Shown: positions 2,285-59,557 of the stretch, one piece after another
How the letters are laid out: every line of letters begins with the position of its first letter
Numbering within the stretch: the stretch's first letter is position 1
IMG/VR virus record: IMGVR_UViG_3300031825_000011
Span: 1 to 60,647 of that record
Reading direction: 5' to 3' (one strand)
Length of the DNA stretch: 60,647 nucleotides
Source of the DNA: a virus
Taxonomy: Duplodnaviria; Caudoviricetes
The notes under the pieces: model-generated
Database searches by the model: none
The model's input: the letters and a program-made list of their open reading frames with translations, nothing else
What the model was told of the DNA's origin: nothing
Program-made: the position numbers and the translations under genes

Positions 2285-3988
2285 TTATGCAGCTTTCGCT
2301 TGTGCAAATGACTGTGTTAGCCAGCGCTGTGCTGTTGGCTTATCAACGCTATAGGTAGTAGCTACCAAGTTAATAATTGCTTCGGCGGTAGGGCGCTTAC
2401 CGATATTAGTAACCACCGTTTTATCTTCACCGGCAGCAGGATCAACACCAATAACGTGCTTGCTAAAGTCGGCTTCATTGATCAGGTTATTGATGGGTGA
2501 GTTTGATAAATCAGCAGCACCAGGCTTTTGCTTAAATTCTTCTTTGGCGGCAATTTCTAGCTTGGCATTAAATTCAGCTTGTCTTGCTGCCGCATCAGCT
2601 TCCACTTTCGCACGAATAGCTATGGCTTTTTCTGCCGCTTCCTGCAGCGCCTTTTCATGCTCGGCAATACGCGCATTCACTGCCAATTTAAAGTCATCAG
2701 CCTGTTTGTAAATCAGAGTTTGCAGATCAGCAAAAATCGGGAATTGGCAATCCAGTGACTTAAACCATGTGAGTTTTGCGCGTAGGTCTTTAGCCAGGTT
2801 ATTTACATGAAGTTCAGCATTAGCCAGCAGGTCATTGATTGCGCCCTGCATACTGTCATAGTTGCGTTTACCTTTAATGGTATTGGCAAAGTCCGGTGTT
2901 GTTTCCAGTATGCGAATCGGTGCGGTTTCTGCTTCAAGTGCTGCGATGATGCCGGTGAATTTCTCTTTCGCCTCGGTGATCATCTTGGTTTTCTTGATTT
3001 TGTCTTGCGTTTCAACGTCACTTTCGAGTTTTAGTGCAGTCTTACGCATATCCTCGCACCAAGCATCAATCATGCGTGCAGCTTCGCCTACGGTAACAGT
3101 CTGTGACAGCATGGCCTCTTTCGCTTGCTTGGCCTGTTCAATGCTATCGCGCAAGTGTTTGGCTGCGGCTTTAGCGTCTACAAAGTCTTGGTCAGTCACT
3201 AACTGGATTGCACGCACGTCAGACAGACGTTTAGCCAGTGCTTGCCCGTACTCTTTCATGTTGTTGGTGGTAATCTCGCCTACGGCCTGTATGAATAGGG
3301 TAGGTAAGCCTTCGATTGTTTTGGCTTCCAGTTTTTCAGCGACAACCGGCGGCGTGTAATTGGCAAGGTCACGGTGAAACTGCGCCCAAATATCAATTAC
3401 AGCCTGTTTGCGTTCCGGCGTGGTGGTGTACCATAGGTGCTTGGCTTCAATCAGGTTGTAATAAGTCGTGACTTCTACACCATCAATGATTTCAACCAGT
3501 ACGTGTTCGGTAGGTGTCTGTGACTTTTCCCACTTGGTTGCACTAAATAGCGTGGTGTCTATTCCGGCAATCAGGCATTGCTGATCCATCTGCAATTTAT
3601 AATGCTCGTCCAGGTCATCACCGGTTTCGCAGGCGCGAATCTCGTCATTGAGTGCTTTATGTTCCCAATTCAGATCGTAATTTAGGGTTAGTCCGTCAAA
3701 CGAGGCGCTTAATGCACCATCGGACGCAGTAATCGGGTACAGTTCACCATCAATCACGGCTTCTGCCAATGGTCGCGCTAACGCTTCGGCGCGGTGTCCG
3801 TCATCAAAACGTTTCTGTGTGGCTGCGTCCACTTCCGCACGCAAGCCGGTAGCGTACTGGTGCTGCAATGCGGCACGGCTTTTGTATTTGCTCTTGCTTG
3901 CGGCGGCTGATACTTCGCTGGCATTGTCGTATTGTTCACGGTGGGCGTGCCATTCAGGCGACCCCTGTACTAAGTTATGGATAATCAT
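2285..3988 (-). CDS. YqaJ/lambda-exonuclease-like recombination nuclease with long coiled-coil C-terminus
   Basis: QGSPEWH, ASE, GH..E, SASFDG, EHK and Y..Q.QQ motifs; adjacent to RecT/Bet. Confidence 0.85.
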   Translation of the reverse strand: MIIHNLVQGSPEWHAHREQYDNASEVSAAASKSKYKSRAALQHQYATGLRAEVDAATQKRFDDGHRAEALARPLAEAVIDGELYPITASDGALSASFDGLTLNYDLNWEHKALNDEIRACETGDDLDEHYKLQMDQQCLIAGIDTTLFSATKWEKSQTPTEHVLVEIIDGVEVTTYYNLIEAKHLWYTTTPERKQAVIDIWAQFHRDLANYTPPVVAEKLEAKTIEGLPTLFIQAVGEITTNNMKEYGQALAKRLSDVRAIQLVTDQDFVDAKAAAKHLRDSIEQAKQAKEAMLSQTVTVGEAARMIDAWCEDMRKTALKLESDVETQDKIKKTKMITEAKEKFTGIIAALEAETAPIRILETTPDFANTIKGKRNYDSMQGAINDLLANAELHVNNLAKDLRAKLTWFKSLDCQFPIFADLQTLIYKQADDFKLAVNARIAEHEKALQEAAEKAIAIRAKVEADAAARQAEFNAKLEIAAKEEFKQKPGAADLSNSPINNLINEADFSKHVIGVDPAAGEDKTVVTNIGKRPTAEAIINLVATTYSVDKPTAQRWLTQSFAQAKAA

Positions 3989-3990
3989 GA

Positions 3991-4953
3991 TTAAGCTACC
4001 TCTCTTTGTTCAGTGCTTTCGTAGTCATTCAGAAAGTCATCTGCTGGTGGTACTTCTGTAAAATCAGCCTCGATCACTTCCAACTGTTTAGCCCATGCTT
4101 CAATCGTTTGTTTCTGTGGTTCTGTCAGCAAGTAACGTGTCTGCAGTTGGTTAATTAAACCGGCTGGTGTTTTCTTACCGCTAGTCACTGCCTCTTTCCA
4201 TGCAGATTCATTCTTGCTGAAATTGGCATCGGTGCAGAATGGCAGGGTTGGCTTCTCGGCAGGCTTTTGTGCTGCGTTAGCATTTTGACTATCCTGCTGT
4301 GGCGTAATGTCAATTTCCTTGCCTTCCATTTCCTCGGCGGTAGGCATTGAACCTAATTCTGGGAATGCTTTACGCAACGCCTGCGCCTCGGCACACTTGG
4401 CTAACTGTGCATAAGGGCGCTTTTTCCACATAGAGTTTGGCTGTGCGCTATCTTTTGATGCAGTCGCATAGTTCTCAAGCCAAAGTTCTTTGGCGTGATA
4501 TTCTGCGATCATGCCGTTTGGCATCAATTTACGAACAGTCACTTTGCACCATTTAGGATAGGTAACAGTTACAGCTTCACGGGCTTTATTGGCTTTCTCG
4601 TATTTGTCGTAATAGCTTTCTGCTTCAAATACCTGTTTAACATCATCGCCAAATACCGGTTCATCAATACCAGCCATTTCACCGCTACGGCTGGCCTGTG
4701 TTCTGTATAAGCCAATGCCAGGCATTACTACATCGCGCATTTCTCTGGCTTTACTGTCATACATCGGTACAAGATGAACAGGCTTTTGCATAATATCCAA
4801 GCCTGCAGCCTTGCAGTAGTTCACTGCCATTTTGATGCTCTCGTCTTTAGCGCCTACATATAAAGACGATCTAAGCACGCCCATTAATTCTGTTTCTGAC
4901 ATACTTAGCGCTGGCAAAGATGCTACCGGCTTCATTTGAATTGCTGTACTCAT
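3991..4953 (-). CDS. bet: Single-strand annealing recombinase (RecT/Bet family)
   Basis: YCKAAGLD..QKPVHLVP, PGIGLYR..A.RSG and W...P..QLAKCAEAQALRKAFP motifs. Confidence 0.9.
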   Translation of the reverse strand: MSTAIQMKPVASLPALSMSETELMGVLRSSLYVGAKDESIKMAVNYCKAAGLDIMQKPVHLVPMYDSKAREMRDVVMPGIGLYRTQASRSGEMAGIDEPVFGDDVKQVFEAESYYDKYEKANKAREAVTVTYPKWCKVTVRKLMPNGMIAEYHAKELWLENYATASKDSAQPNSMWKKRPYAQLAKCAEAQALRKAFPELGSMPTAEEMEGKEIDITPQQDSQNANAAQKPAEKPTLPFCTDANFSKNESAWKEAVTSGKKTPAGLINQLQTRYLLTEPQKQTIEAWAKQLEVIEADFTEVPPADDFLNDYESTEQREVA

Positions 4954-44221: not shown

Positions 44222-47200
44222 ATGACCAAACCTACATTCATTGATCCTTTCGATAATGCAGAATCTACCAAACCTGCTTTTGTTGACCCGTTTGAAACAG
44301 ATGCGCCAACTAGCAAGCCAGAACCAAAATCCGGCACAATCCGCAGGGCGATAGGCGATACGGCACTCACAGCACTCAAAAGTACGATTGCCGTACCTGA
44401 AATTGCCGTTGGTCTTGCTGACCTTGTAAGCGGTGGACGTGCCGGTAAGCTTGCCGAGGAAGCAGGCTTTAAGCCCAAACAGGCTAAAGAGTTTATCAGT
44501 GATTATTATAGCCCTGAACAGAAACTTGCAAATCAAAAAGTGCAAGAAGCTGACGGCTTTATTGATACCGCTAAAACTGCATTGCAATACCCATCAACCA
44601 TTTTTCATACCACACTAGAATCATTGGGCGGCATGGGCGTGGGCGGTTTAGGTGCGCGTGGATTAATGGCGGTTGCACCTAAAGTCGCACCGTTTGTTGC
44701 AGGTGCAATAGGTGAAGGTTTAGTAACCGCAGGGCAGAACGCAGAACAGTTAAGACAGGAAACTGATGATGGATTGCTAACCGGAAAACAGGCGGCAATT
44801 ACGGCAGGAAGCGGCGCATTAACCGGCTTAATCAGTGGCGCAAGCGGCAGCATAGCTAAGAAACTTGGCATTGCTGATATTGATACGCTTATTGCAGAAG
44901 GTAAATTAGCAGGCAAAGCAACCGGCTTACCAAAAGCAATCGCAGGCGGCGTTATCAGTGAAGGCTTGCTGGAAGAAATGCCACAATCAGCGCAAGAGCA
45001 GATTGCACAAAACTTATCACTTGATAAACCTTGGGATGAAGGTGTCGGCAATGCTGCCGCAATGGGCGCATTATCCGGCGGCTTAATGGGTGGCGGTGCA
45101 AACGTGCTGAATGCTTTTGGCGGTAAAGACAATACTCAAGTTACACCACCACCAGCACCACCAGCCCCAGAAGGTTCACTGACTTCCGCAGCTACTATTG
45201 CGCAAGCCGTTGGCCTCACTCCACAGCCTGTAACCCCAGACGTTACAGAACAGAAGCCTAATATCGTTGATTCACTAAATGCAGTCGAGGCACAACAGAA
45301 TGGTGTCATGCCTGATACCACTATTGCACCGGAACAACCATTAGCAGAAATACAAGCGCCTACACTTGCGCCGGAACAGGCCGCAGAAAAACAAATTATT
45401 GATGAACAAGCGCAGCAGGCAGCAACTTCACCGCTGAATGATTTACCACAGCCAACAGAAAAACAGGTTGAGGCAGGCAATTACAAAAAAGGCCATATCA
45501 AGTATGACGGCCTGAATATCACCGTAGAAAATCCACAAGGTTCTACCCGTAGCGGTGTCGATGAAGATGGGAAAACTTGGGAAAATACCCTGGCTAACCA
45601 TTATGGTTACATCAAACGCACCAAAGGTAACGATGGCGATAATCTTGATGTATTCGTTGGTGACAAGCCTGCAAACGGTAAAGTATTTGTCATTAACCAG
45701 ACCAAAAAAGACGGCAGTTTTGATGAACACAAAGCCGTTTTAGGTGCGGAAACCGCAGACGAAGCGATTGCAATCTACAAGGCTAACTATGCCGATGATT
45801 GGAATGGCGGCAAATCCGTTACAGAACTGACAACGCCAGCCTTTAAAGATTGGCTGAAAAACGGTGATCCAACAAAGCCATTGGAAACTGTTAGCGCCAC
45901 AAACAATGATGTGGATATGACCAAGGTTGCAATCGGTGAAAAGGTCGATGTAGGCGGCGTACCGTATGTTAAAACTGAAAATGGTTTTGAGCGCGTTACA
46001 AGTGCAACAGAAAATGTTGTCAATGCAACAAGTGTCGATACCACAACCACATTACCAGAACGTGTCGATGAAACTGCAAATGGCGTACAAGTGCCTGCAA
46101 TTAATCAAGCCATTGTTGGCGAGGATGATCTGCCTTTTGATTCTTACGCGCAAAAGAATGTTGATGCTGCAAATAATGCAAAAGCCAACTGGATTTCAGC
46201 ACAGACTGATTTAATTTCAGCCAGAGATATTGCCTTCACGGATTCTGACAAATTATATGAGGATATAAAGCAAAACAGACGTGGCATGACGTTTGAAAAA
46301 GCAACGTCACTGATTGATGCTGCCGAAAAAGATGCGATTGTTGATAGTGTTATTGCAAATAAACTGCGTAATGATATTGCGCCGCTTGCTACAACGAATA
46401 ATGCAGAACCAGCACAACCTGCCGACACAGTTCGCCCATTAGTCGAGCAACTCACTAAACTACGCGCCACCGCAGATAAGCACCCTAGTTTTGATCCGGC
46501 ATTGAAAGCCGCTAAAGACTTTATGGCAGGGAAGAAAGTATCGCCTAGACAGTTCAAGAACTTTGCAAACCTGTTAGGTAAAAAGAACAAAGCATTCCGC
46601 GAAGTATTAATGCAATTACATGACCAGGCTGCAAGCACACCGGAACAATTAGCCGCAAAAGAGAAGAAAAGCAAACTAGCTAAAGCCATGCTGGCAGAAC
46701 GCATGAAGCTGGACACTACAAAAGACGGATTAATGCAGGCAATGGCTAAACTCGGTGGCCTGAATGCTGATAAAGCCAAGTCTGAATTTGGTATAGATCC
46801 TGCCGATATGCGTCAACACGGCGCAGGCATTAAGCGCAGTTTCAATAAAAACGGATTAGACGCTGATACCATGCGCGAACTGCTTAAAGAGCAGGGTTAT
46901 CCAGTAGGTGAAACCGTTGCAGACTTAGGCAATGCGATTGCTGATGCTATGTCAGGCATTGATGTATTGACCGCAGCAGGCCAAGAAGCACTAGCACAAA
47001 AGAAATATGAGGAATATGCTAATGGTATTGATGAATTAAGCGATGACGAACAGGCGTTGCTTGATGAATTAGTGACAAAAGCCACCGCTAAATACGGTGC
47101 GGAAGCGCTTGCAGAAATTGACGCTTCATTGGCTGAATCTATGAAAGGCCAGCCACAACCAGAAATTGAACGCGCATTACTGCGTATGTTAAAAGAGGAG

Positions 47201-50200
47201 TTTGATGATGAAACAGGTAATGCAGGAACTAGCCAAGCTACCGAAGGACAGGCAGGACAAGATACTGAAACTGGCAGCACTGAAAATGGCGGCAGACGCG
47301 CACAGCAAGATGGCGCAGAAATTGAAGGACAAGGAAGCGAAACCAGCCAAGTAGCAGAAGTAACTGATAACTTCACCCTATCAGGCCAAACCAACGAAGA
47401 TATAAACGCAGGCATTGCAGCGCAAGAAGCAGAAGCCAGAGCGCAGCAAGAGCAGGCTAAATCCGATGAAGCCGCACGTATTGAAGCAGAGCGCAAATCC
47501 CGTCAAGAGATTGCCGCTGACAGTTTCGATCTAACTCAAACCGGTAAAGACGCAAAATCTACCAAAGCCAACGATGCAAAGGTTATTGATAACCAGTTTG
47601 CAGGGCAGGGGGATTTGCTTTCACAACCAGCCGAACAGCCTAAATCTGAAACTAAGGCAGCCAACAATATCCAAGACTTAGGTGAGAAAATCGGTGGCGC
47701 ACGTAAAGATACAGCCGTATCAACCGGCACAAAAGCAAAACGTACTGATAAAAATCCAGACGTACCAACATGGGCGAAGCGTTACAACATTACCGAAACC
47801 GTTTATTCAAGTGATGAAAATGAAAATGGAACTTGGTCTATTTATGATTCACGCGACAAAAATAGGTTAGGACTTCCGCGAGAAATTGGCAAAGGCTTTG
47901 CATCAAAAGAAGCTGCAATGGCTGAATTACCGGCCTTGGTCGTAGGTGCAAAACATAGAGTGGTTGCAACCGCACAACGTCCTGATGGCACTTATGGTTA
48001 TGAAATCTACCGCAGTATTAATGACCGCAAGCGCGTCAAGATTGTTGATAAGGTATTTGATGACCGCATTGAAGCCTTAACCTACATGGGCGAACATGCC
48101 GCAGAAATACTTGAAACCAACACGACTTTTGGTGAAGTTGACCTGCCGACACCAGATGATACCAACCGTGTAGGCGTAGCACGCAGAAGCGGTGACGTGA
48201 AAGATACTGATTTCATGGACACTTTCGGCTTCCGTGGCGTGGAGTTTGGTGAGTGGAATAACCAGATAGAGCGCCAACAAGTGATGAATGCCGCTTATGA
48301 TGGACTGCTTGACCTTGCCGAAGTATTGAACCTGCCGCCTAAAGCCTTAACACTGAACGGCGATTTAGCACTGGCATTCGGGGCGCGTGGTCAAGGCTTA
48401 TCAGCAGCAAAAGCGCACTATGAGCGCGATAAATCAGTGATCAACCTGACTAAGATGAACGGCGCAGGTTCACTTGCGCATGAATTTTTCCATGCCTTAG
48501 ACCATTACTTAGGCCGTCAAGACGGTAAAGCATCAAGTGAATGGGTAACAGATAGTGATGGTACTCGTTCATTTAAAGCTAAAGAAGTTGAAGATGATAT
48601 GGTAAGTAGCGGCTTTAGCTACAAATCCAATGTGCGTGAAGAAGTGCGTACTGCCTATAAAGCCCTGATGGAAACCATGTTCAGGAAGGCGACCACCTAC
48701 GTTGAAGATACGCAAGAGGCTGACAAGTTTGTTGCCAGGGCAAAAGATGATTTAGCTTCTAAACTGGATAGCATTCGCAATGAATTGTCTGCGCAGAAAG
48801 ACCCGAAATACTACAAGCGCAATAACAAGCCAGCTACCGCAGAACAATTAGCCGAGTTTGATACCATTGCCAAGCAGTTGCTTGATGGTCAAGGCTTGGA
48901 CGCTGAATATCGCGCCATTGATGACGGCAGAAAGCGTACCCGTAAATGGCAGTTGCCAGCAGGTCGTCATACCAATGATGCACTGGAAAAAATAAGCGCT
49001 ATCTATAAAGCGGTGCGCGGCAGAAATGGATTTGATTCAACCAACCAGAACGGCACAATGGATTACTTGCGCGGCACAATGTCGCGTTACAGTGGTCGCC
49101 TCAAAATGCTGGCAGACGCACAGCAAGGCAATGAAAAAGTCAGACAAGTACCTACCAATTTTGCCTTGAATGCAAAAGAACTGGATCAAGGTCGTGGTAA
49201 GGATTACTGGACAACACCGCATGAAATGGCAGCGCGTGCATTCCAAGGATATGTTGAAGATAAGATTACAGCCACCGGCGGTAAAAGCCCATTCTTAAAC
49301 TACGGCAGGGAAGGCGCAGGTATTTTGACACCGTGGGGCGTTAAGTTCCCATTCCCAAGAGGCGAAGAACGCAAGGCGATTAATGCAGCACTGGATAAGT
49401 TTGTTTCAGCATTGCAGACCAAAGAAACCGACAAAGGCATATCACTTTACAGCCGTAGCAACAACAAAACCGGTGATTCTGGCCTTGGTAACGTCACTGT
49501 TAAGCCAATTAAAACATTAAGCAAAGCTATTCAAACCGCACTTGACGCTGAAAATGCCGTTCAAGTATCTGTTACAGGGGGTAATGTAAATGTCTTACGA
49601 GAAATTGCAAAAACATTCGGAAAACAAATCATCTTTTATAACGAAGCGAACCCTTTCACGCCCTTGGGCGCTGGTGTGCGTGAAAACGGGAGAGTACAGG
49701 TACAGCCTGGAAGAACTGAAAACGATGCTGCCACCGGCACAGTATCAGAAGGCAATCCAGTACAGGGAGAGCGTAGCGAATCCAGTGGACGATCCGACGG
49801 ATTTGTTAACACTGGACTTCCTGGATATATATTTCTCAGAGTTGATGGAAAAAACAACGCGCTCTACATTGTAGGTCATGAGTTAGGCCATAGCTTGCGT
49901 ATGGACGATCCTGCGCTATGGGCGCAGATGGGTAAGCAATTACAGCCTTTAATTAGACAATGGGGTAAGTATAAAGCTGAATCTGGCTATGATTTCAATA
50001 ATGATGTGGAATATGTTGAAGAACTATTCGGTGACATTATCGGTGACAATTTTACCAATCAAGACTTTTGGAATGATGTTGCCGCACAAAGCCCGTCATT
50101 ATTTAAACGCATTGCAAACAAAGCCATTCAGTTATTAAACAAAGTTATTACCGCAATTAAAGACCGCAATGCTAATGCCTTCCTGACAGACGCAACCCAA

Positions 50201-53200
50201 GCCAGAGCGATTATTGCCAATACCTTAGTTAAGTATGCTGACAATGTGAATAAAGGGGTGTATGCCAAGTACGCAAGTGAACTGGACGCTGGTAATAAAC
50301 GTTCAATCAATTCACAGCCAGCTACTTTAAATGCAAACGGCAAACCGATATACTCTACCCAAGAAGGTATTGATAATTTCTGGGAGTGGTTCAATGACAT
50401 TCAATTCAGAGGACTGGCGCAGACGGGTAAAACTGGCGCAGACGGACGAGGAAATGACAGCACTCGCACTGGAACTGGAAAGCAAGCCTACGGACTTGAT
50501 GAACAAGGCCGACCAAGAATCTTCTTTCACGGAACAGCATCCGATTTCAGCGCCTTTGATCTTGAACACGCGCAAAGGAAAGATCGTGGTTGGCTAGGTG
50601 ACGGGGTTTATCTTACTAACGATACCTTACTTGCAGAAAGCTATTCCAATCTAAAAGCAGGTAATGCTGATCCAAATATCATGCCGCTATATGTGGCATT
50701 GCATAATCCGTACTTTGCTACTATCAAAGTCAAGCAAGCGCTTAAAGGCGCGTCCAAGCAGGAAATTACAGACTTCACCGATAAGTTAAAGGCATTAGGT
50801 CATGATGGGGTAGTGCTTGAATACAACGATGAAACCAGTGAAGTCGTTGCATTTTATTCTAATCAAGTGAAATCTGCCGTGGGGAACAACGGTGATTTTG
50901 ATGCTAAAAATGACGATATTCGTTATAGCCGTCCATCTGCCCCAACCTTCTATTCTGCCCTGGCTAAAGCTATCCCATTAGCAAAACAAGACACCATGCC
51001 AGCCGGCCAATGGAAAAACTGGCTAGTAGCTAACGCCGGTAAGATGAATGTCAAGCAGGCTGAACTGCAATGGTCAGGCTTAACCGATTACTTAGACCTG
51101 CAGCAAGGCAAGGTAAGTAAGGCTGATATTCAGCAATACCTTGATGCTAATGGTGTGCAGGTTAGTGAAACTATGCTTGGTGACAAATCAGAAAATGATT
51201 ACCGAGTGCTAGAAGAAAAGTACGATAACGCTGCCGATGCCGTAAATGAGGCTATCCGCAACCATGTTTCATTTGAGGAGCAAGATAGATTACGCGCAAT
51301 TCGTGATGATTACCAAGATCAGATTATAGAAAATGCGAAGAAGGTTGATGCAACTAAATACGCCAAATACACCGTAGCAGGCGGAGAGAACTATAAAGAG
51401 TTGTTGCTGACGCTGCCAGAGAAAACGCCTCTTTCAGATGATGAAAGAAATGAGCTTAATAATCTAGGCATGAAGATGAATAATGACATTGATTTCTCAT
51501 ATAAAGATCAAAAAAGATACAGAGAATTGATGGATAAATCAGCTTTACGAGTTGATAACAATTATAAATCTAGTCATTTTGAACAGCGCAACATTCTCGC
51601 GCACGTAAGATTTGACGAGCGTGTAGATGCGGACGGTAACAAGGTTCTATTCATCAATGAGATTCAATCTGATTGGGGGCAAGAGGGTAAGAAAAAAGGG
51701 TTTGGTGATGGCATAACAATCAAAAAAGACATTAATGGGTTTTATCGCGCATACAGTCGTGATGGTTCTTCTATTGAACTTCGTGTGAATGGCGAAAGAT
51801 TTAGTGCGCTTAGTACAGAGCAAGCAGTTAGGGATGCTTTACCAACTTCATATACGCCCCATGTAATTCCTACCGCCCCATTCGTAACAGAAACAAAATC
51901 CTGGGTATCACTCGCACTCAAACGCATGATTCGTTATGCGGCTGAAAATGGCTTTGATAAAGTAGCTTTAATCAACGGGCAGCAAGCGGCTGATCTTTAT
52001 GATTTGAGTAAGCAAATCAATATGGCTTCTGCTATTGCCAATAATGACGGTACTTACAATCTTATTCTTGAAGATAAAAGCGCGAATGAAATATCTGGCT
52101 ATGCTGGCGGCGGTAAGAAATTAAACGCACAGGAATTAGAAGATACAATCGGTAAAGACTTGGCTGCAAAACTGATTGAGGGCGCGGATAAAAACAAGAG
52201 TAAGCCTTGGCCTAAAAACGCCAGTGTTAATCCAGCATTTTTCACATTGCGCGGTATTGATCTCAAAGTCGGCGGCGAAGGTATGCGTGCCTTCTATGAC
52301 GAAATTGTACCGTCAACGGCACGCGATGTATTACGCAAGCTTGGCGTTAGCCCTCATTCTCTTGGTAGTAAGGCCAAATCTTCTAAGGTAATTGGAAACA
52401 GTAGCTTGGTTGATGCCAAGTTTTTCAGCGATCTGGTTTTGAGTAAGACCTTCATTGACAAGGGGTTCAAAGGCGTTGATTCCGAGAGCAAACGAGTGGT
52501 GCAATCTAAGATGCTCGCTATTGGAAAGGACGACAAGATTCTCAAGTCTGTTATCCGTGCCATCCCCGTTGATGTGATGAACATGCTCAACAGCCAGAAG
52601 CTTTCTGCCGAGATGTTCTTCCATAATCCTACGATGCTCATAAATTACAGTGTAGTTCCACTTAGACCTAATATGCCCACTGCTGTCGATGTGTCCTCTG
52701 CGCTCATACGTGGCATAGCAAGCGCGACTGCAAAAGAAGTTGATAGTCTTGGAATCTCTGATTCTGTTGGTTTTTCTGGTAAAGACAGTGCCGCAACTGG
52801 TACACTTATGGATAGCCATAACATTACTCCTTCTAGTAGTGTTGGGTTAGAGGCTGGTGATGTTAGCGCATCATCAGCTTCGTCTATTATACATCCAATA
52901 CTAATCAATGGAAGCATACAACTCGGCTTCACCATCACCCCTGAACTACGCGCTAAAGCCTTAGAAGGCTTGCCATTATTCAGCCGTCCACAATCCAAGT
53001 TCTCACAAAAATCTACCGGTATTGATATTCGTGACCTGAATGCAGTGGTTGCTAACGTCAATCAAGCCTTGCGTGGCCTGCCTGCAACTTATGTGTTGGA
53101 AGATTACACTAAAGCACCGGCTGAATTAGTCGCGGATATTAAGCGTGATAAAGCCTATGACGCTGCAGGCGCATGGCATAACGGCGAAATATACCTATTC

Positions 53201-56200
53201 CGCAACAACATCATCAATACAAATCATGCCCTGTTTACCATGCTGCATGAATCTACCCATGAAGGCTTGCGCCGTGTATTCGGTAAAGAGATTGATGCGA
53301 CTTTAATGGGCATCTATCTAAGCAATCAGGATATTAAACAGCAGGCAGATAGTTTACGCGCTACACACAAAGACCTGTCACTGGTCGCGTCCGTAGAAGA
53401 AGCGCTGGCAGATATGGGCGGCAACGGTATTAAAGCAAGTGTAATGGATAAACTAATCGCTTTCGTGCGCAATTTCTTACGCAGATTAGGCATGAATCTG
53501 AAAGTATCAGATGGCGAAGTAAGGGCGATTGTTACCCGTGCCTTGGATAGCCTGAAATCACCTAGCAAGGTTACGCATTACACGATTGGTTCTGCTTATT
53601 CCGCAGATAGTTCAGGCGACCAGACTAATACGCCGGAGTTTAAGGCATGGTTTGTGGATAGTAAGGTGGTGGATGAAAATGGCGATCCTCTTGTTGTTTA
53701 TCATGGTACTGGAAATGATTTTAATGAGTTTGAAATTGGAAAAGAAGGCGGCGTTTTCTTTTCTGAATATAAATCAATAGCAAGTGCATTTGCCACAAAT
53801 GTTAGATATGGGAAATTGAAATCTAACATTGATTTAGAAGGATCAAATGTAATGCCTTCTTATTTATCATTGCAAAATCCAATGATTGTAGATTATCAAA
53901 ATAAATATTCTGTTGCAGGGGTTAAATCTGACATAACAAAGGCAAGAAAAAAAGGATTTGATGGGCTTATTATTAGAAGGGCAATGGATTTTGGTGGTAG
54001 AGCAGATCAATATGTGGCTTTTGAGCCTACTCAAATCAAATCTGCAATCGGCAACAACGGCGACTTTGACCCTACTAACCCTGACATTCGCTACAGCCGC
54101 CCAACACCGCGTCTTTCACCCGTAGTTCAACCATCAACACCAAACCAGCAATGGCAAAGCCCAGATAAAAGTAAACTGGATAACGTCATCTATATGCTGC
54201 AAAACAAGTTCGTGGACTTGAAGCGCGTGACGCAGGCTATTCAAAAATCAGGCAATACCATTGAGGATAAATGGAATCCATACCTGTTAGAAGAAAACTT
54301 CACAGGACGTACCGCAAAGCGTACTAAAGATTTTCTCAAGCAGGAATTAGAACCGCTGATGAAATCCATGCAAGCGCGTAAAGTGGAAATGGCTGACTTT
54401 GAAGAATACTTGTGGGCGCGTCATGCCGAAGAACGCAATATCCAGATTGCCAAGATTAATCCGGCAATGCAGGACGGCGGTTCTGGCATGAAAACACAGG
54501 ACGCACGCGATTATCTGGCAAACCTGACACCGGTACAAACAGCAAATTATCAGGCACTTGCCGCCAAAGTGGACGCGATTCTTAAAACTTCACGTCAGCG
54601 CTTGATTAGCTACGGACTTGAAACACCGGAAACGATTGCCGCATGGGAAGGTGCATATCAGCACTATGTACCATTGATGCGTGAGGATATGGATAATGGT
54701 TTTGGCAACGGTTCAGGCCAAGGATTTTCTGTTAAAGGCAATGCTTCCAAACGCGCAACCGGTTCTAAACGTGCCGTGGTGGACGTACTGGCGAACATTG
54801 CGCAACAGGTAGAGCGTAACATCATCCGTGGCGAAAAGAACCGTGTATCAACCGCACTGGTAGGACTAGCGACACTTAACCCGAATAAAGACTTCTGGAA
54901 AGTGGACGTTGTGCCAACAATGCGCACCGTGGTTGCCGGTAAAAATAGTTACGAAGTGCTGTACAACGGTTCTGTGGTGCAGACCTTCACTAATCCGGTT
55001 GAGGCCAATAAGTTCATTCAATGGAATGGCGCAGGCTATACGCTGAATATCGTCAAAGGTCAGGACTTGGTAATGGACGTGCCAGATCCAAGTTACAAAA
55101 ACCGTGACAATGTTGTAGTGGCGCGTATCGTCAATGCCAAAGGCAAGATCGAGGAACATTTTGTCGAGTTTAATACGCATGATGAACGCGCCATGCGTGC
55201 AGCAGCATCTATCAAGAACCTAGACCAAGACCAGATCGGTGAATTGCTTGGTACTGCGTCAAGCATTACCCGTTACTTCTCAAGCATCAACACCCAATAC
55301 AACCCGTTCTTCGGTGTCATCAACATTCTGCGTGACGTACAGGGTTCATTATTAAACCTTAGTTCTACACAATTGGCTGGCAAGCAACTGGACGTATTGA
55401 AAAATACGCCATTGGCTTTGAAAGGCATCTATCAGGATATTCGCAGTGAGCGCAAGACCGGTACACCGACTAATTCATTCTGGTCATTATTGTTTGAGGA
55501 CTTCCAGAAACAAGGTGGGCAGACCGGCTACCGCGATATGTACCGCAATGCGAAAGAACGTGGCGAAGCACTCAAGCACGCGCTTGATCCGACTTGGTGG
55601 CAACAAACGACTGCAGGCAAGATTGTCAGCATTAACGGCATCCTGGCTAAACCTGAACAATTCCTGAAAGAAGCAGGCCAGAAATACATTTTTGATTGGT
55701 TAAGCGATTACAACGAATCAATGGAAAATGCGGTGCGCCTGTCTGCTTACAAGGTCGCACTGGATAACGGCATGAGCAAAGCACAAGCTGCCAGCCTTGC
55801 CAAAAATATCAGTGTGAACTTTAACCGCAAGGGTGAAATGGGCAGGCAAATCGGTTCGCTGTATGCCTTCTTTAATGCGTCCGTTCAAGGTACTGCGCGT
55901 ATTGGTGAAACTTTATTCACAGACAACAACGGCAAACTGACATTAAGCAAAGCCGGTAAAGCGATTGTCACCGGTGGCTTATTGCTAGGTGTCATGCAGG
56001 CTTTAATGTTAGCAGCGGCAGGCTTTGGTGATGATGAACCGCCTGAATTTGTACGTGATCGCAACCTGATTATTCCTTTGGGTAACGGTAAGGCGATTAC
56101 GATTGCCATGCCATTAGGCTTTAATGCCTTGCCTGCTTTCGGACGCATTCTCACTGAATGGGCATTATCCGGTGGTGAGGACACTAGCAAACGCTTCTTC

Positions 56201-56944
56201 CATATTTTTGAAATGCTTGCAGAAGTGACTAACCCGATTGGCAATGCCGGATTATCCATGCAAACAATCACACCAACCATGTTCGATCCGCTTGCTGCTT
56301 TGGCAGAAAACAAGGATTGGACAGGCAGACCGATTGCCAAGATGGATTTCAATTCACAGAAGCCAACAGCAGGTCATACCCGTGCTAAAGATACTGCCAG
56401 TGCTATCAGCAAAGGCTTGTCTTGGGTAGTGAATGAAGCAACTGGTGGCAGCGATTACACCCCAGGCGCTTTAAGCCCGACACCAGACCAGATTGATTAC
56501 TTGCTTGGTCAAATATTCGGCGGTGTAGGCCGTGAATACATGAAGCTGGAACAGTCTGCGACCTCTATTGTGACCGGCGAAGAATTACCGGTGTACAAAA
56601 TCCCATTGGTCGGCAGGTTTTATCTCGATGCAGAAGGGCAATCATCCCAAAGTTCACGCTTCTATGACAACCTGAAATCAGTGTTTGAAACTGAAACGGA
56701 ACTGAAAGGCTTACGCAAGGACGGCCTCGATACATCAGAGTATCGCGCTAATCATCCCGAAGCGGCATTGGTATTCCGCGCTAATTTAGAACAGCGTGAG
56801 ATTAGCCAACTGCATAAATTGCGTTCAGAGAAACTCAAAGCCGATGCTTCACCAGATGAAATCAAGGCGCTGAATGAACGGATCACCGCGAGAATGCTGA
56901 AATTTAACGAACTGTTTAAAACAAGGACAACAGCAGGCGAATAA
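44222..56944 (+). CDS. Giant polyvalent virion/ejection protein (4240 aa)
   Basis: InPase-like (GNYKKGH...YGYI..T.G.DGD..DVF), LPD5-like (D.GEKIGGARKD), LPD1-like (FRGVEFG...AHEFFHALD...HEMAARAF), two further HExxH motifs, two ART-PolyVal-like (F/YHGT...KSA.GNNG.FD) and an LPD38-like C-terminus (LYAFFNASVQG). Confidence 0.9.
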   Translation: MTKPTFIDPFDNAESTKPAFVDPFETDAPTSKPEPKSGTIRRAIGDTALTALKSTIAVPEIAVGLADLVSGGRAGKLAEEAGFKPKQAKEFISDYYSPEQKLANQKVQEADGFIDTAKTALQYPSTIFHTTLESLGGMGVGGLGARGLMAVAPKVAPFVAGAIGEGLVTAGQNAEQLRQETDDGLLTGKQAAITAGSGALTGLISGASGSIAKKLGIADIDTLIAEGKLAGKATGLPKAIAGGVISEGLLEEMPQSAQEQIAQNLSLDKPWDEGVGNAAAMGALSGGLMGGGANVLNAFGGKDNTQVTPPPAPPAPEGSLTSAATIAQAVGLTPQPVTPDVTEQKPNIVDSLNAVEAQQNGVMPDTTIAPEQPLAEIQAPTLAPEQAAEKQIIDEQAQQAATSPLNDLPQPTEKQVEAGNYKKGHIKYDGLNITVENPQGSTRSGVDEDGKTWENTLANHYGYIKRTKGNDGDNLDVFVGDKPANGKVFVINQTKKDGSFDEHKAVLGAETADEAIAIYKANYADDWNGGKSVTELTTPAFKDWLKNGDPTKPLETVSATNNDVDMTKVAIGEKVDVGGVPYVKTENGFERVTSATENVVNATSVDTTTTLPERVDETANGVQVPAINQAIVGEDDLPFDSYAQKNVDAANNAKANWISAQTDLISARDIAFTDSDKLYEDIKQNRRGMTFEKATSLIDAAEKDAIVDSVIANKLRNDIAPLATTNNAEPAQPADTVRPLVEQLTKLRATADKHPSFDPALKAAKDFMAGKKVSPRQFKNFANLLGKKNKAFREVLMQLHDQAASTPEQLAAKEKKSKLAKAMLAERMKLDTTKDGLMQAMAKLGGLNADKAKSEFGIDPADMRQHGAGIKRSFNKNGLDADTMRELLKEQGYPVGETVADLGNAIADAMSGIDVLTAAGQEALAQKKYEEYANGIDELSDDEQALLDELVTKATAKYGAEALAEIDASLAESMKGQPQPEIERALLRMLKEEFDDETGNAGTSQATEGQAGQDTETGSTENGGRRAQQDGAEIEGQGSETSQVAEVTDNFTLSGQTNEDINAGIAAQEAEARAQQEQAKSDEAARIEAERKSRQEIAADSFDLTQTGKDAKSTKANDAKVIDNQFAGQGDLLSQPAEQPKSETKAANNIQDLGEKIGGARKDTAVSTGTKAKRTDKNPDVPTWAKRYNITETVYSSDENENGTWSIYDSRDKNRLGLPREIGKGFASKEAAMAELPALVVGAKHRVVATAQRPDGTYGYEIYRSINDRKRVKIVDKVFDDRIEALTYMGEHAAEILETNTTFGEVDLPTPDDTNRVGVARRSGDVKDTDFMDTFGFRGVEFGEWNNQIERQQVMNAAYDGLLDLAEVLNLPPKALTLNGDLALAFGARGQGLSAAKAHYERDKSVINLTKMNGAGSLAHEFFHALDHYLGRQDGKASSEWVTDSDGTRSFKAKEVEDDMVSSGFSYKSNVREEVRTAYKALMETMFRKATTYVEDTQEADKFVARAKDDLASKLDSIRNELSAQKDPKYYKRNNKPATAEQLAEFDTIAKQLLDGQGLDAEYRAIDDGRKRTRKWQLPAGRHTNDALEKISAIYKAVRGRNGFDSTNQNGTMDYLRGTMSRYSGRLKMLADAQQGNEKVRQVPTNFALNAKELDQGRGKDYWTTPHEMAARAFQGYVEDKITATGGKSPFLNYGREGAGILTPWGVKFPFPRGEERKAINAALDKFVSALQTKETDKGISLYSRSNNKTGDSGLGNVTVKPIKTLSKAIQTALDAENAVQVSVTGGNVNVLREIAKTFGKQIIFYNEANPFTPLGAGVRENGRVQVQPGRTENDAATGTVSEGNPVQGERSESSGRSDGFVNTGLPGYIFLRVDGKNNALYIVGHELGHSLRMDDPALWAQMGKQLQPLIRQWGKYKAESGYDFNNDVEYVEELFGDIIGDNFTNQDFWNDVAAQSPSLFKRIANKAIQLLNKVITAIKDRNANAFLTDATQARAIIANTLVKYADNVNKGVYAKYASELDAGNKRSINSQPATLNANGKPIYSTQEGIDNFWEWFNDIQFRGLAQTGKTGADGRGNDSTRTGTGKQAYGLDEQGRPRIFFHGTASDFSAFDLEHAQRKDRGWLGDGVYLTNDTLLAESYSNLKAGNADPNIMPLYVALHNPYFATIKVKQALKGASKQEITDFTDKLKALGHDGVVLEYNDETSEVVAFYSNQVKSAVGNNGDFDAKNDDIRYSRPSAPTFYSALAKAIPLAKQDTMPAGQWKNWLVANAGKMNVKQAELQWSGLTDYLDLQQGKVSKADIQQYLDANGVQVSETMLGDKSENDYRVLEEKYDNAADAVNEAIRNHVSFEEQDRLRAIRDDYQDQIIENAKKVDATKYAKYTVAGGENYKELLLTLPEKTPLSDDERNELNNLGMKMNNDIDFSYKDQKRYRELMDKSALRVDNNYKSSHFEQRNILAHVRFDERVDADGNKVLFINEIQSDWGQEGKKKGFGDGITIKKDINGFYRAYSRDGSSIELRVNGERFSALSTEQAVRDALPTSYTPHVIPTAPFVTETKSWVSLALKRMIRYAAENGFDKVALINGQQAADLYDLSKQINMASAIANNDGTYNLILEDKSANEISGYAGGGKKLNAQELEDTIGKDLAAKLIEGADKNKSKPWPKNASVNPAFFTLRGIDLKVGGEGMRAFYDEIVPSTARDVLRKLGVSPHSLGSKAKSSKVIGNSSLVDAKFFSDLVLSKTFIDKGFKGVDSESKRVVQSKMLAIGKDDKILKSVIRAIPVDVMNMLNSQKLSAEMFFHNPTMLINYSVVPLRPNMPTAVDVSSALIRGIASATAKEVDSLGISDSVGFSGKDSAATGTLMDSHNITPSSSVGLEAGDVSASSASSIIHPILINGSIQLGFTITPELRAKALEGLPLFSRPQSKFSQKSTGIDIRDLNAVVANVNQALRGLPATYVLEDYTKAPAELVADIKRDKAYDAAGAWHNGEIYLFRNNIINTNHALFTMLHESTHEGLRRVFGKEIDATLMGIYLSNQDIKQQADSLRATHKDLSLVASVEEALADMGGNGIKASVMDKLIAFVRNFLRRLGMNLKVSDGEVRAIVTRALDSLKSPSKVTHYTIGSAYSADSSGDQTNTPEFKAWFVDSKVVDENGDPLVVYHGTGNDFNEFEIGKEGGVFFSEYKSIASAFATNVRYGKLKSNIDLEGSNVMPSYLSLQNPMIVDYQNKYSVAGVKSDITKARKKGFDGLIIRRAMDFGGRADQYVAFEPTQIKSAIGNNGDFDPTNPDIRYSRPTPRLSPVVQPSTPNQQWQSPDKSKLDNVIYMLQNKFVDLKRVTQAIQKSGNTIEDKWNPYLLEENFTGRTAKRTKDFLKQELEPLMKSMQARKVEMADFEEYLWARHAEERNIQIAKINPAMQDGGSGMKTQDARDYLANLTPVQTANYQALAAKVDAILKTSRQRLISYGLETPETIAAWEGAYQHYVPLMREDMDNGFGNGSGQGFSVKGNASKRATGSKRAVVDVLANIAQQVERNIIRGEKNRVSTALVGLATLNPNKDFWKVDVVPTMRTVVAGKNSYEVLYNGSVVQTFTNPVEANKFIQWNGAGYTLNIVKGQDLVMDVPDPSYKNRDNVVVARIVNAKGKIEEHFVEFNTHDERAMRAAASIKNLDQDQIGELLGTASSITRYFSSINTQYNPFFGVINILRDVQGSLLNLSSTQLAGKQLDVLKNTPLALKGIYQDIRSERKTGTPTNSFWSLLFEDFQKQGGQTGYRDMYRNAKERGEALKHALDPTWWQQTTAGKIVSINGILAKPEQFLKEAGQKYIFDWLSDYNESMENAVRLSAYKVALDNGMSKAQAASLAKNISVNFNRKGEMGRQIGSLYAFFNASVQGTARIGETLFTDNNGKLTLSKAGKAIVTGGLLLGVMQALMLAAAGFGDDEPPEFVRDRNLIIPLGNGKAITIAMPLGFNALPAFGRILTEWALSGGEDTSKRFFHIFEMLAEVTNPIGNAGLSMQTITPTMFDPLAALAENKDWTGRPIAKMDFNSQKPTAGHTRAKDTASAISKGLSWVVNEATGGSDYTPGALSPTPDQIDYLLGQIFGGVGREYMKLEQSATSIVTGEELPVYKIPLVGRFYLDAEGQSSQSSRFYDNLKSVFETETELKGLRKDGLDTSEYRANHPEAALVFRANLEQREISQLHKLRSEKLKADASPDEIKALNERITARMLKFNELFKTRTTAGE
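47205..47354 (+). CDS. Nested +1-frame ORF in the giant gene (49 aa)
   Basis: AGAGGAG RBS; MMKQVMQELAKLPKDRQDKILKLAALKMAADAHSKMAQKLKDKEAKPAK. Confidence 0.5.
   Translation: MMKQVMQELAKLPKDRQDKILKLAALKMAADAHSKMAQKLKDKEAKPAK
49590..49874 (+). CDS. Nested +1-frame ORF in the giant gene (94 aa)
   Basis: AGGGGGT RBS 7 nt upstream; overlaps a linker-like stretch of the giant protein. Confidence 0.4.
   Translation: MSYEKLQKHSENKSSFITKRTLSRPWALVCVKTGEYRYSLEELKTMLPPAQYQKAIQYRESVANPVDDPTDLLTLDFLDIYFSELMEKTTRSTL
50394..50597 (+). CDS. Nested +1-frame ORF in the giant gene (67 aa)
   Basis: GGGAG RBS; candidate promoter TTTAAA-17-TATACT; coincides with an insertion in ART domain 1. Confidence 0.5.
   Translation: MTFNSEDWRRRVKLAQTDEEMTALALELESKPTDLMNKADQESSFTEQHPISAPLILNTRKGKIVVG
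52331..52819 (-). CDS. HNH endonuclease nested antisense inside the giant gene
   Basis: C..CG..F...FCS..C Zn finger, EHRRIMEEHLGR.L...EHVHHINGD.TDNRLENL and C-terminal HTH (LTQNQIAEKLGINQATVS); AGAAGGAG RBS. Confidence 0.9.
   Translation of the reverse strand: MAIHKCTSCGTVFTRKTNRIRDSKTINFFCSRACYATYERRGHIDSSGHIRSKWNYTVIYEHRRIMEEHLGRKLLAVEHVHHINGDGTDNRLENLVVLSNSEHLRLHHSFALGINAFEPLVNEGLTQNQIAEKLGINQATVSNYLRRFGLTTKRMRANAKLA
52827..52891 (-). promoter_or_regulatory. Expression signals of the antisense HNH gene
   Basis: Perfect TATAAT (52886-52891), leader hairpin GCTGATGATG/CATCACCAGC, RBS at 52827-52834; no clear -35. Confidence 0.65.
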
Positions 56945-57005: not shown

Positions 57006-57125
57006 AGTGACCCTATCTTCAAAATCACATACTAGCAAATTTATCGCTGGTATGTGGGGTATGAATGGGGAACGATTAACCGAACAAATCAGAAGCCGCT
57101 TTACGTGGCTTTTTTTGTGGGAGTA

Positions 57126-58283
57126 ATGATGACTGCCAAAATAGATGAAGCGTTAAAAGAGTGGGCAACAATTAGACAACTGGAATACATTGAAGCGATT
57201 AATGCAACATTAAACCTGCATGAAGCCGCCAGGCAATTAGGCGTATCACGGCAGACAATCCAAAACAGCATGAAACTGTTACGCAAAAAAGCCGCTACAC
57301 AGGGATTTTCGCCGGAACATGGCTATATTCATACTGTACCTGACCCGTTTATTGTAACCGGTATATCGACCTATCATAAAGATACGCGCCAGTGGGTGAA
57401 GTCTAAACTAGACGATAAGAAGCGAGAAGAAGCAATCCGTGAAGGGTTTGAAGTTATGGCAAATGACTTGCCTAGACTTGAAGCGATACGGAAGCCTATA
57501 ACTATACACGATCAGTTATGTAATCTTTTTACCGTCACTGATTTTCACCTGGGGATGCTTGCCAACGAAAAGGAAAGCGGCAACGATTGGGATTTGAAAA
57601 TAGCAGAAGCTACCTTGGTCGGTTGCTTTGAACAGATGATTTTATCATGCCCGAATGCGTCAATTGGTGTCATCAATCAGCTTGGCGACTTCCTGCATAG
57701 CGATGGCATTATGCCGGTGACACCAACCAGCGGTCACATTGTAGATCAGGACGGCAGGTTCGCAAAAATTGTCACGGTTGCACTTCGCTTATTGCGAAGA
57801 ATTATTGATATAGCTTTAATGCGTCATGAAAAGGTTATTGTGCTAATGGCAGAAGGCAATCACGATATTACTTCTAGTATCTGGTTACGAGTAATGTTTA
57901 AAGCGCTGTATGAAAATGAACCACGCATTGAAGTCATTGATTCCGATTTGCCGTATTACCAATACCAGCACGGGAATACGATGCTGGCTTTCCATCATGG
58001 GCATTTATCAAAAAACGATTCATTACCTTTACTGTTTGCGTCACAGTTCCCTAAAGTCTGGGGCAATACCACCAAGCGCTATTGCCATACAGGACACCGC
58101 CACCATGTAGAAGAAAAAGAACACAGCGGCATGAAAGTGATCCAGCACGCAACTTTATCAGCAAGGGATGCTTACGCTTCTCGCGGCGGATGGTTATCAG
58201 AAAGAGAAGCAACGGCTATTACTTATCACAAAGAATATGGACAGGTTGCGAGAACTACCGTGACACCGGAAATGCTGCAATAA
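57126..58283 (+). CDS. HTH + calcineurin-like metallophosphoesterase
   Basis: HEAARQLGVSRQTI HTH; TDFHLG, LGDFLHSD, GNHD, HGH and GHRHH motifs. Confidence 0.85.
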   Translation: MMTAKIDEALKEWATIRQLEYIEAINATLNLHEAARQLGVSRQTIQNSMKLLRKKAATQGFSPEHGYIHTVPDPFIVTGISTYHKDTRQWVKSKLDDKKREEAIREGFEVMANDLPRLEAIRKPITIHDQLCNLFTVTDFHLGMLANEKESGNDWDLKIAEATLVGCFEQMILSCPNASIGVINQLGDFLHSDGIMPVTPTSGHIVDQDGRFAKIVTVALRLLRRIIDIALMRHEKVIVLMAEGNHDITSSIWLRVMFKALYENEPRIEVIDSDLPYYQYQHGNTMLAFHHGHLSKNDSLPLLFASQFPKVWGNTTKRYCHTGHRHHVEEKEHSGMKVIQHATLSARDAYASRGGWLSEREATAITYHKEYGQVARTTVTPEMLQ

Positions 58284-58354: not shown

Positions 58355-58585
58355 TCTTACTATTTTTCTTACCATCGTGCTTGTAAGGCGCGTCAATACT
58401 AGATGATTGATGCTCTCCTTTCGCACCATATCATAGCTTTAAAATCCCCTGTAAACCGCTTATATATTGGCCTTCTGGCCTTTTATATAGCGGTTTTCTA
58501 TTTTGGTAATATCTGGTGATAAGTGGTTGCTTGTGGGCATATAAAGATATATATTCTTACTAAATTCTTACCACCATTCTTACCA
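58355..58585. other. attP: tRNA-Leu-like core plus arm-type repeats
   Basis: Core CTCTCCTTTCGCACCA at 58413-58428 (tRNA 3' end with CCA); (T)TCTTAC(C/T)A repeats at 58355, 58366, 58554, 58565, 58577. Confidence 0.75.
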
Positions 58586-58588
58586 TTC

Positions 58589-59557
58589 ATGGCAACCGTA
58601 CAAAAAACAGCTTCCGGCAAGTGGAAATTTACCGCTACCGTAAACTATAAGCAGCACACCAAGACCTTTGAAACTAAAGCCGAGGGGTATGTGTGGGAAG
58701 AATTGCTGAAAGCCGGTAAAGGTAAAACGCCGTCCATTACGTTCGGCAAATTGCTGGAAAAATACCGTGATGAAGTTTCTGTAAATAAAAAAGGTGAGCG
58801 ATGGGAAAGCATTAGAATCGGATTATTCCTGCGCGATAAGATAGCAGATATTAAAATCGCAGATTTATCTAAGGCTACTTTTGCAGAGTGGCGCGACCGG
58901 CGCTTAAAAGAAGTTTCTGCATTATCGGTACTGCGTGAATGGGCATTACTTAGTCATTGCCTGCAGATTGCGGTGAACGAATGGGAATACCTGCCAGACA
59001 ATCCAATGAAGGGATTGAAAAAACCCAAGGGTGAACCGCCAAGAGATAGGTTAATTAGCCAGGATGAAATTGACCGCTTATGTTTTGCGCTGAATTATAC
59101 GCCCACTGCTGAACTGTCAACCGTCACCAGCAGAATAGGGGCTGCATTCATGTTTGCCATTGAAACGGCATTTAGGGCGCAAGAGATATGTAATTTAAGA
59201 TGGGTTGATATATCTGGCAGGGTTGCCAAGATCAACGATTCCAAGACGTTCGCAGGTGTGCGTGAAGTACCGTTAAGTAGTGTGGCTATGGCAATCGTTC
59301 AGCAGTGCAAGGGAGTTGATAAAAATCTGGTATTCAACATTAAGACCAGCCAGCTAGATGCGCTATTCAGGAAGGCAAAGAAGTTGGCTATGGTTGATGG
59401 GTTGCACTTTCATGATACTCGCGCGGAAGCAATCACGCGCCTTGCTAAAAAGCTGGATATACTAGACTTAGCCAGAATGGTTGGGCATAAAGATTTAAAA
59501 ATGCTCATGGTTTATTACCGTGAATCAGCCAGCGACATAGCCAAAAGGCTAGACTAA
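58589..59557 (+). CDS. int: Tyrosine integrase
   Basis: Catalytic R (TAFRAQEI), K (SKT), HDTR, GH and YY. Confidence 0.95.
   Translation: MATVQKTASGKWKFTATVNYKQHTKTFETKAEGYVWEELLKAGKGKTPSITFGKLLEKYRDEVSVNKKGERWESIRIGLFLRDKIADIKIADLSKATFAEWRDRRLKEVSALSVLREWALLSHCLQIAVNEWEYLPDNPMKGLKKPKGEPPRDRLISQDEIDRLCFALNYTPTAELSTVTSRIGAAFMFAIETAFRAQEICNLRWVDISGRVAKINDSKTFAGVREVPLSSVAMAIVQQCKGVDKNLVFNIKTSQLDALFRKAKKLAMVDGLHFHDTRAEAITRLAKKLDILDLARMVGHKDLKMLMVYYRESASDIAKRLD

Follow-up and report, generated by a model that had tools for sequence, protein, structure and literature searches.

The DNA analysed here, hereafter the window, is the whole of IMG/VR virus record IMGVR_UViG_3300031825_000011 (60,647 bp; completeness estimated at 93%). 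Its plus strand carries a giant gene (44222-56944) for a polyvalent virion protein of 4240 residues, which is open across its full length, with no stop codon and not a single cysteine. A second open reading frame (ORF), which encodes an HNH endonuclease of 162 amino acids (aa) followed by a TAA stop, lies on the minus strand at 52331-52819 and is contained entirely within the first. The offset between the two frames, 52331 minus 44222, equals 8109 or 3 x 2703, and therefore each codon of the HNH gene is the reverse complement of one codon of the host gene. The TAA stop (52333-52331) complements the host TTA codon for Leu2704 in the sequence ARDVL|RKLG. An earlier note, made by a model from the letters of the window, had claimed both this exact codon alignment and the pairing of the stop with a host leucine codon, and arithmetic and direct reading bear it out. 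In such a codon-aligned antisense register, the only codons of one gene that read as stops in the other are TTA, CTA and TCA.

Three regions can be recognized in the antisense product. An N-terminal zinc-ligand region (52718-52804, minus strand) holds C6, C9, C30 and C34, and is followed by an HNH_3 catalytic core (52505-52642, minus strand; residues 60-105, EHVHHINGDGTDNRLENL...H) and by a C-terminal helix-turn-helix (HTH; 52376-52462, minus strand; residues 120-148) that is matched by HTH_24, HTH_23, HTH_3 and others. The Pfam HNH_3 family (PF13392) matches residues 60-105 with 40.4 bits against a cut-off of 24.8 (E 2.3e-10), PHROG 7545 (HNH endonuclease) matches the ORF with an E-value of 2.9e-21, and a tblastn search with the HNH protein found 103 phage records, annotated HNH endonucleases among them. 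The four zinc-ligand cysteines, as well as H79, H81, H82, N90, N94 and H103, are invariant in all six of the embedded HNH proteins described below. The conserved His/Asn/His residues presumably have the catalytic roles known for the beta-beta-alpha-metal motif. An AlphaFold2 model of the protein, whose alignment consisted of the six embedded sequences only, has a predicted local distance difference test (pLDDT) score of 79.3. These family matches and invariant residues agree with the earlier note, which had described zinc ligands, an HNH motif and an HTH in a 162-aa minus-strand ORF inside an uninterrupted giant ORF, and on this sequence evidence we consider that the antisense ORF is a genuine HNH_3 endonuclease gene.

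The leader of the HNH gene carries a Shine-Dalgarno sequence, AGAAGGAG, read directly from the minus strand at 52827-52834 and located 7 nt 5' of the ATG. A 14-bp hairpin (52850-52881) and a TATAAT hexamer (52886-52891, minus strand; 67 nt upstream of the ATG) lie further away. The hairpin contains GC and has a T-rich tail on the plus strand, on which it appears terminator-like by scan; on the minus strand it is placed between the TATAAT hexamer and the ribosome-binding site (RBS).

Comparison of the giant protein with its relatives reveals that the HNH gene resides in an insert. A search with host residues 2380-3080 recovered 869 relatives at E<=0.001 among 1779 candidates, and most of the best 120 relatives, which were listed, cover only a conserved module ending FYDxIVPxxAxDVLKKLGG. 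Among 121 giant proteins this module-end motif occurs 98 times in 95 proteins, and GFxITP follows it in 69 cases. The spacing between the two is 20-86 aa in 66 of these 69, and is long (171-194 aa) in only three, namely the window protein (P0003), P0009 and P0012. In the window, about 189 additional host residues (2709-2897) stand between LRKLG and LGFTITPELR, very nearly the 190 that the earlier note had estimated, whereas P0004 and P0006 align to residue 2708 and resume at 2898-2900 with just 31-44 aa between. The insert proper spans 52346-52914, with the HNH gene on its minus strand and the extra host segment on its plus strand, and it is absent from P0004, P0006 and L047, the contig that encodes P0004.

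The same empty allele is visible in the DNA. L047 is 87-90% identical to the window in patches that end at 52011 and resume at 52919, and blastn aligns nothing between these points, such that the unaligned block (52012-52918) contains, besides the insert, about 330 nt of the host gene on the side of the HNH 3' end. The short interval in relatives that the earlier note had proposed as the mark of an empty allele is thus present in both protein and DNA comparisons. Presence and absence at one site among related alleles, the pattern by which a mobile gene is recognized, is found here, with 3 of 69 sites filled and the sites of P0004/L047 and P0006 empty. Between carriers that share this site, the inserts are 49% and 42% identical, compared with 37% and 37% for the upstream host module, which is consistent with passage of the element from one diverged host allele to another. 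Identity to P0004 is 56% in the module that directly precedes the insert, versus 76-91% in other blocks. The unalignable block 52012-52918 may represent a co-conversion tract, a pattern that ordinary module shuffling could also produce.

Public sequence data were consulted for further copies of this region. Megablast of positions 50800-54400 gave no match among GenBank phages, and tblastn with a 500-aa host stretch found two records, which match residues 1-150 and 1-139 and thus reach only as far as the insert. Contigs from public sequencing runs, which show presence only, have loose ends at the same position 52919 in two other runs. Run X3, a wastewater sample labelled RNA-Seq cDNA but marked as probably DNA, includes HNH contigs (52512-52810, with 8 differences) and a contig that bridges the right junction. 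The same run also has contigs that share only the flank from 52919 onward, and filled and differently linked alleles may co-occur in this one sample. A candidate joint from 52285 to 52919 in X3, with one side of just 21 letters, was not used as evidence, and stretches that the contigs of runs X2 and X4 leave uncovered carry no weight either way. A Logan contig of run X1, produced by an independent assembler, shows no differences over 51800-53500; X1 is possibly the source sample, and the agreement therefore tests the assembler and does not provide independent data. Together with the open ORF, this result counts against the possibility raised in the earlier note that a misassembly or a stop splits the giant gene here.

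Antisense HNH genes recur in other giant genes. When the insert is read in the host frame, it matches segments in seven of the best 120 homologues (E 1.6e-47 to 8e-6), and these segments share the motif IP(V/I)DV.., which is the antisense of HH(I)NG(D/N). From this host-frame motif alone, antisense HNH genes are predicted for P0009, P0012, P0070, P0031, P0083, P0017 and P0095. A scan of IMG/VR with the host-frame reading yielded six loci, and in five of them (L037-L041) a giant open frame of 1683-3427 aa is accompanied by an intact, codon-aligned HNH on the other strand. Domains of the LPD, InPase, RadC, MuF_C or ART-PolyVal type are found in the giant frames of these five, each antisense ORF scores above the HNH_3 cut-off, and the insertion sites vary. 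A search for other in-frame antisense HNH genes in polyvalent genes, which the earlier note had recommended, therefore has a positive outcome at different sites.

Several of these loci show how the insert sits relative to host domains. In L039 (5917-6582) and L040 (5923-6465), the antisense HNH splits an ART-PolyVal domain after a GLYFAES motif; the Pfam match ends at profile position 49-70 of 140, and the interval at this site measures 52-100 aa in homologues versus 166-180 aa in L040. In L041 (5881-6549), the antisense HNH lies within a conserved module, after ...MIRWAAEN, and is thus in a domain rather than in a linker. This is the same module as in the window, interrupted approximately 100 residues earlier, and its flanks are contiguous in 16 uninterrupted homologues (gap of -2 to +3 aa) versus 220-225 aa in L041.

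The host-frame reading is also common on a larger scale. A profile built from eight such sequences and compared with 1.84 billion representatives matched 1400 clusters at E<=1e-3, 383 at <=1e-10 and 35 at <=1e-30. Among the best 150 of these 1400 hits, 126 proteins have at least 1000 aa and 88 have at least 2000 aa. Two controls were made with the HNH protein itself. None of 36 IMG/VR loci found with it lies under a giant opposite-strand ORF, and none of the 36 is hidden on the same strand. Among 70 loci of metagenome HNH relatives (best identity 65%), one has an aligned antisense frame open across the HNH, which at 187 aa is not giant, and no further embedded case was found among them.

The codon content of the HNH gene reflects the opposite strand. 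None of its 25 codons for Leu (15) or Ser (10) is TTA, CTA or TCA, as the earlier note had observed for about 25 codons, and with host-gene usage as the expectation this absence has a probability of 3.6e-5. The three codons constitute 4.8% of the 16,784 codons in the genes of the window, and when segments of 171 codons were slid along 51 genes, a single one of 9110 was free of them, at the HNH locus. Summed over the six loci, stop-codon avoidance reaches a log10 P of -18. A second, independent avoidance concerns cysteine. The codons ACA and GCA in the HNH gene would read as Cys on the host strand, and they are used for 0 of 12 Thr and 0 of 11 Ala codons, compared with host-gene usage of 0.29 and 0.41. 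Over the six loci together, there is no ACA among 57 Thr codons and no GCA among 74 Ala codons. The same codon is used at 43-65% of identical HNH residues, a comparison that lacks a proper null.

The host proteins show the corresponding gap in amino acid composition. Like the window protein, 86 of 121 giant homologues contain no Cys at all. Of the top 150 profile hits, 126 have 1000 aa or more; in these proteins, Cys is absent from all 23,844 residues of the matched segments and occurs 81 times in the 307,363 residues of the remainder (0.026% Cys outside the insert). The absence of Cys may be linked to delivery of the host protein via the virion and the periplasm. Because both stop codons and Cys codons are avoided, and because Cys avoidance would serve no purpose in a stretch that is untranslated or spliced out, the codon evidence suggests that the host frame is most likely translated through the insert.

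Both readings of the insert were also compared between loci. With the frames aligned independently, identity is higher in the HNH frame than in the host frame in 15 of 15 pairs, and identical residues are more numerous in the HNH frame in 14 of 15. The conserved HNH-frame positions are the metal and catalytic ligands. A structural model of the host-frame insert has an overall pLDDT of 58.8, with a helical core at 75-81 and disordered flanks, and a fold search with this model found no solved fold that it resembles (best E 0.91). The host-frame reading may itself now be a folded helical spacer module. In a phylogenetic tree, the six antisense HNHs and three HNHs hidden on the same strand as their host genes fall into one clade with support of 96/94.

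We propose that a mobile HNH homing-endonuclease gene has inserted backwards into a polyvalent gene whose frame is read through without splicing, and we assign this explanation a probability of about 0.78. An HNH gene with zinc ligands, an HNH_3 core and an HTH would have entered an inter-domain linker of the giant gene in reverse orientation, directly after the conserved FYDxIVPxxAxDVL(K/R)KLG module. The insert comprises a whole number of codons aligned with the host frame, and synonymous codon choice in the HNH gene avoids both TTA, CTA and TCA, which are host stops, and ACA and GCA, which are host Cys codons. Because stops are avoided synonymously, the host ribosome could read straight through, and neither an intron nor an intein would be necessary. 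Approximately 189 residues, possibly with a helical core and floppy flanks, would thereby be added between two modules. The HNH protein would be made from a minus-strand transcript by means of its own strong RBS. The presumed targets of this enzyme are alleles of co-infecting or resident relatives that lack the insert; after cleavage, repair would copy the element plus some flanking sequence. The earlier note had likewise favoured read-through insertion as an alternative to splicing, and the empty alleles, the recurrence, the lack of any splicing signal and the avoidance of Cys speak for it. What is observed directly is the anatomy of the locus, the existence of empty alleles, the avoidance of certain codons and the recurrence of the layout; transcription, translation of both frames, cleavage and homing are what the proposal would add.

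Homing endonuclease genes usually reside in introns or inteins, and it is natural to ask whether the mature protein lacks the insert, which would have been lost as an intron (group I or group II) carrying an antisense ORF, as an intein, or through translational bypass, in which case the open host frame would be incidental. Antisense homing endonuclease genes are indeed described in nuclear rDNA group I introns in the part of the literature consulted (PMC9548176). However, Rfam gave no match at E<=1 on either strand of 51000-54500, a search that novel ribozymes would escape, and with Pfam neither the whole host protein nor the 500-aa stretch matched a Hint or intein family. The insert, which starts VSPH and finishes GSIQ|LGF, is without the intein nucleophile and His-Asn ends and, as noted above, without Cys. 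The claim in the earlier note that no intron or intein is involved is supported by these searches. Avoidance of stops and Cys, and open frames in six loci and 126 giant proteins, would also be needless if the insert were removed, and we regard removal as very improbable. An equally slim chance is given to the view that the giant ORF is not translated across the insert because the gene is dead or split, its frame having stayed open only because very little time has passed since insertion. Modularity is a feature of polyvalent proteins, which, we infer, may be dispensable, and the nearest empty allele differs over the whole block 52012-52918, such that the event could be recent in this lineage. 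Nonetheless, the layout persists with both frames open in relatives whose HNH proteins are only 31-38% identical, and neither the lack of ACA and GCA codons over the six loci nor the lack of Cys in the matched segments would be expected without selection at the level of translation. A trivial origin, as a chance shadow ORF or a misassembled contig, has a negligible probability. Shadow ORFs of 100-211 aa do exist on the minus strand of the giant gene, but these are mostly in another register and no family match is claimed for them, whereas the HNH ORF exceeds the Pfam curated cut-off and occupies the sole segment free of blocking codons. The identical X1 contig, with the caveat on its source, and the X3 contigs of the HNH and the right junction likewise argue against misassembly.

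A domesticated or relic insert is an unlikely explanation, but one to be taken more seriously than the preceding three. The HNH gene would have arrived by the same route and would now be immobile, serving either as a fixed host linker or in the interest of the phage, perhaps by keeping out rival phages or by antisense control of the giant gene. The predicted helical core of the host-frame reading (pLDDT 75-81) and its freedom from Cys, like that of the host, point to selection on the host side; moreover, the scan found no canonical promoter for the HNH gene. Against this stand the fact that all six embedded HNHs share the same catalytic and zinc residues, the stronger conservation of the HNH frame in every pair, the patchy distribution with only 3 of 69 sites filled, the insertion at different sites of different genes, and the greater likeness of inserts than of flanks between carriers. 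Because of these five features, ongoing mobility fits better than a fixed relic.

A number of observations count against backward insertion with read-through of the host frame. Of the expression signals that the earlier note had attributed to the HNH gene, the RBS stands, and the TATAAT hexamer and the hairpin are present. However, the hexamer is without a canonical -35 partner, a promoter scan upstream of the gene found no sigma-70-type site, leaving a promoter role unsupported, and the leader fold is ordinary (z -1.32). Among the public runs listed for the stretch there is no RNA run. Structural comparison is similarly modest, as the top Foldseek match of the HNH model in the Protein Data Bank (PDB) is I-HmuI with weak scores (E 0.024, TM 0.32), and a sequence-profile search of the PDB returned one zinc-finger match and one HTH match with no HNH structure. 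The codon probabilities assume that the HNH gene would otherwise share host-gene usage, and stop avoidance alone is not significant in the GC-richer loci L038 and L040 (P 0.14 and 0.10). The profile behind the Cys count in matched segments was built from Cys-free sequences, which creates a slight bias against Cys-bearing hits. The left end of the insert is approximate because there is no nucleotide-close pair of filled and empty alleles. Finally, the tree does not separate the antisense and same-strand layouts within their common clade, where the antisense HNHs require two changes and inner support is weak.

In the window, portal, head-closure and other virion genes precede the giant gene, which is followed by an exonuclease gene (57054-58283) and an adjoining integrase gene (58523-59557; PHROG 1, E 3e-54). 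Because an integrase is present, the phage is probably temperate, and a prophage copy could thus meet superinfecting relatives. Pfam places InPase at host residues 413-546, LPD1 at 1654-1734, ART-PolyVal in two stretches with the top-scoring copy at 2093-2226, and LPD38 at 3938-4130. The second ART-PolyVal copy probably lies near residues 3128-3295, where PHROG 21376 matches and where identity to the ART region of P0004 is 32%. The giant multi-domain architecture, with LPD and ART-PolyVal modules, is that by which polyvalent proteins are recognized. Compared with P0004, P0011, P0016 and P0006, the giant protein is a mosaic in which blocks of 76-96% identity alternate with blocks that are absent or 24-56% identical. 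The breakpoints coincide with module borders, and one of them is at the insert. The module found ahead of the insert in the window occurs three times in one relative, P0005 (3239 aa; matches at 176-496, 731-1074 and 2319-2630). The minus strand opposite the giant gene also has several shadow ORFs of 114-211 aa (44605-47496 and 55885-56352); their register is offset by 2 and thus outside codon alignment, no family match was sought, and they are probably chance products of codon bias.

Taken more broadly, we lean towards the view that 'stealth' HNH genes, antisense to and codon-aligned with their host genes, form a mobile class of their own, which is widespread and invades coding DNA without splicing. 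Members of such a class would have their synonymous codons dictated by the host protein, with neither stops nor Cys permitted, and both strands of some 500-800 nt would remain coding over deep divergence in more than 1000 clusters of mostly giant phage proteins. If this is true, there is a third way, beside introns and inteins, for a homing endonuclease gene to inhabit an essential or large gene, and the single published splicing-free case is extended from the same strand to the opposite strand. These loci would also be natural, recurrent examples of long stretches that code on both strands, where codon choice reveals in which direction the constraint acts. Since gene callers report the giant ORF alone, databases do not show these nucleases, and the host-frame reading (1400 clusters) has the look of an unknown domain. 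In addition, the strict absence of Cys from the host frame offers a handle on what virion-delivered polyvalent proteins must avoid, and the antisense HNH enzymes may be a source of new site-specific nickases.

The closest known system is the ShiLan domain (Arsenault, Gosselin, Gogarten 2025, PMC11855218), described in the main text of that paper as a stop-free insertion in mycobacteriophage methylase genes with an HNH hidden in the third frame of the same strand. Splicing-free read-through insertion of an HNH gene has thus already been published for a same-strand, out-of-frame case. As in the window, the ShiLan HNH lies within a host ORF that is readable without a stop and lacks intron or intein features, its distribution among relatives is patchy, and its host-frame reading is unassignable and was modelled as a loop. 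The nucleases are homologous, and the window HNH shares 37% identity (E 4e-9) with the hidden HNH of Mantra gp64, one of the carriers named there. By tblastn the window HNH also matches Bombitas gp109 and cyanophage Cr-LKS3 g59, and all three matches are on the strand of the host gene at frame offset 2. In Cr-LKS3, a Cylindrospermopsis phage, the hidden HNH lies in an annotated DNA methylase (L045:2219-2971), and another same-strand HNH of the ShiLan type occurs outside actinophages in a 561-aa open frame of a metagenome contig (L062:684-1160). In contrast to the same-strand, third-frame ShiLan arrangement, the window HNH is on the opposite strand and codon-aligned. It has its own Shine-Dalgarno sequence, whereas the ShiLan paper, in its main text, reports no RBS, and its hosts are polyvalent virion proteins of several thousand residues rather than actinophage methylases of about 500-800 aa. 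The words antisense, reverse, opposite and complement do not occur in the main text of PMC11855218, and nothing on an in-frame antisense HNH, whether in polyvalent genes or in giant phage genes of other kinds, emerged from our literature searches, which did not cover supplementary tables. To the extent of these searches, the antisense layout is unpublished.

Other comparisons place the window HNH among familiar mobile and overlapping genes. Like I-HmuI (PDB 1u3e) and other free-standing phage HNH homing endonucleases, it combines an HNH_3 core with N- and C-terminal DNA-binding parts, and its IMG/VR relatives are ordinary stand-alone genes. However, free-standing HNH genes are located between genes or in introns, whereas this one is wholly within coding sequence of the other strand. 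Homing genes borne by inteins and introns similarly place a selfish nuclease gene within an essential or large host gene without harm to the host, but it is splicing, of RNA or of protein, that spares the host there. In the window no such element is detectable, and the giant protein apparently retains the insert. Antisense overlapping genes that arise by overprinting in bacteria and viruses likewise yield two proteins from opposite strands of the same DNA. In those systems the new gene originates de novo within an older one, whereas here an old and widespread HNH family has been inserted, and it is the host-frame reading that is the newcomer.

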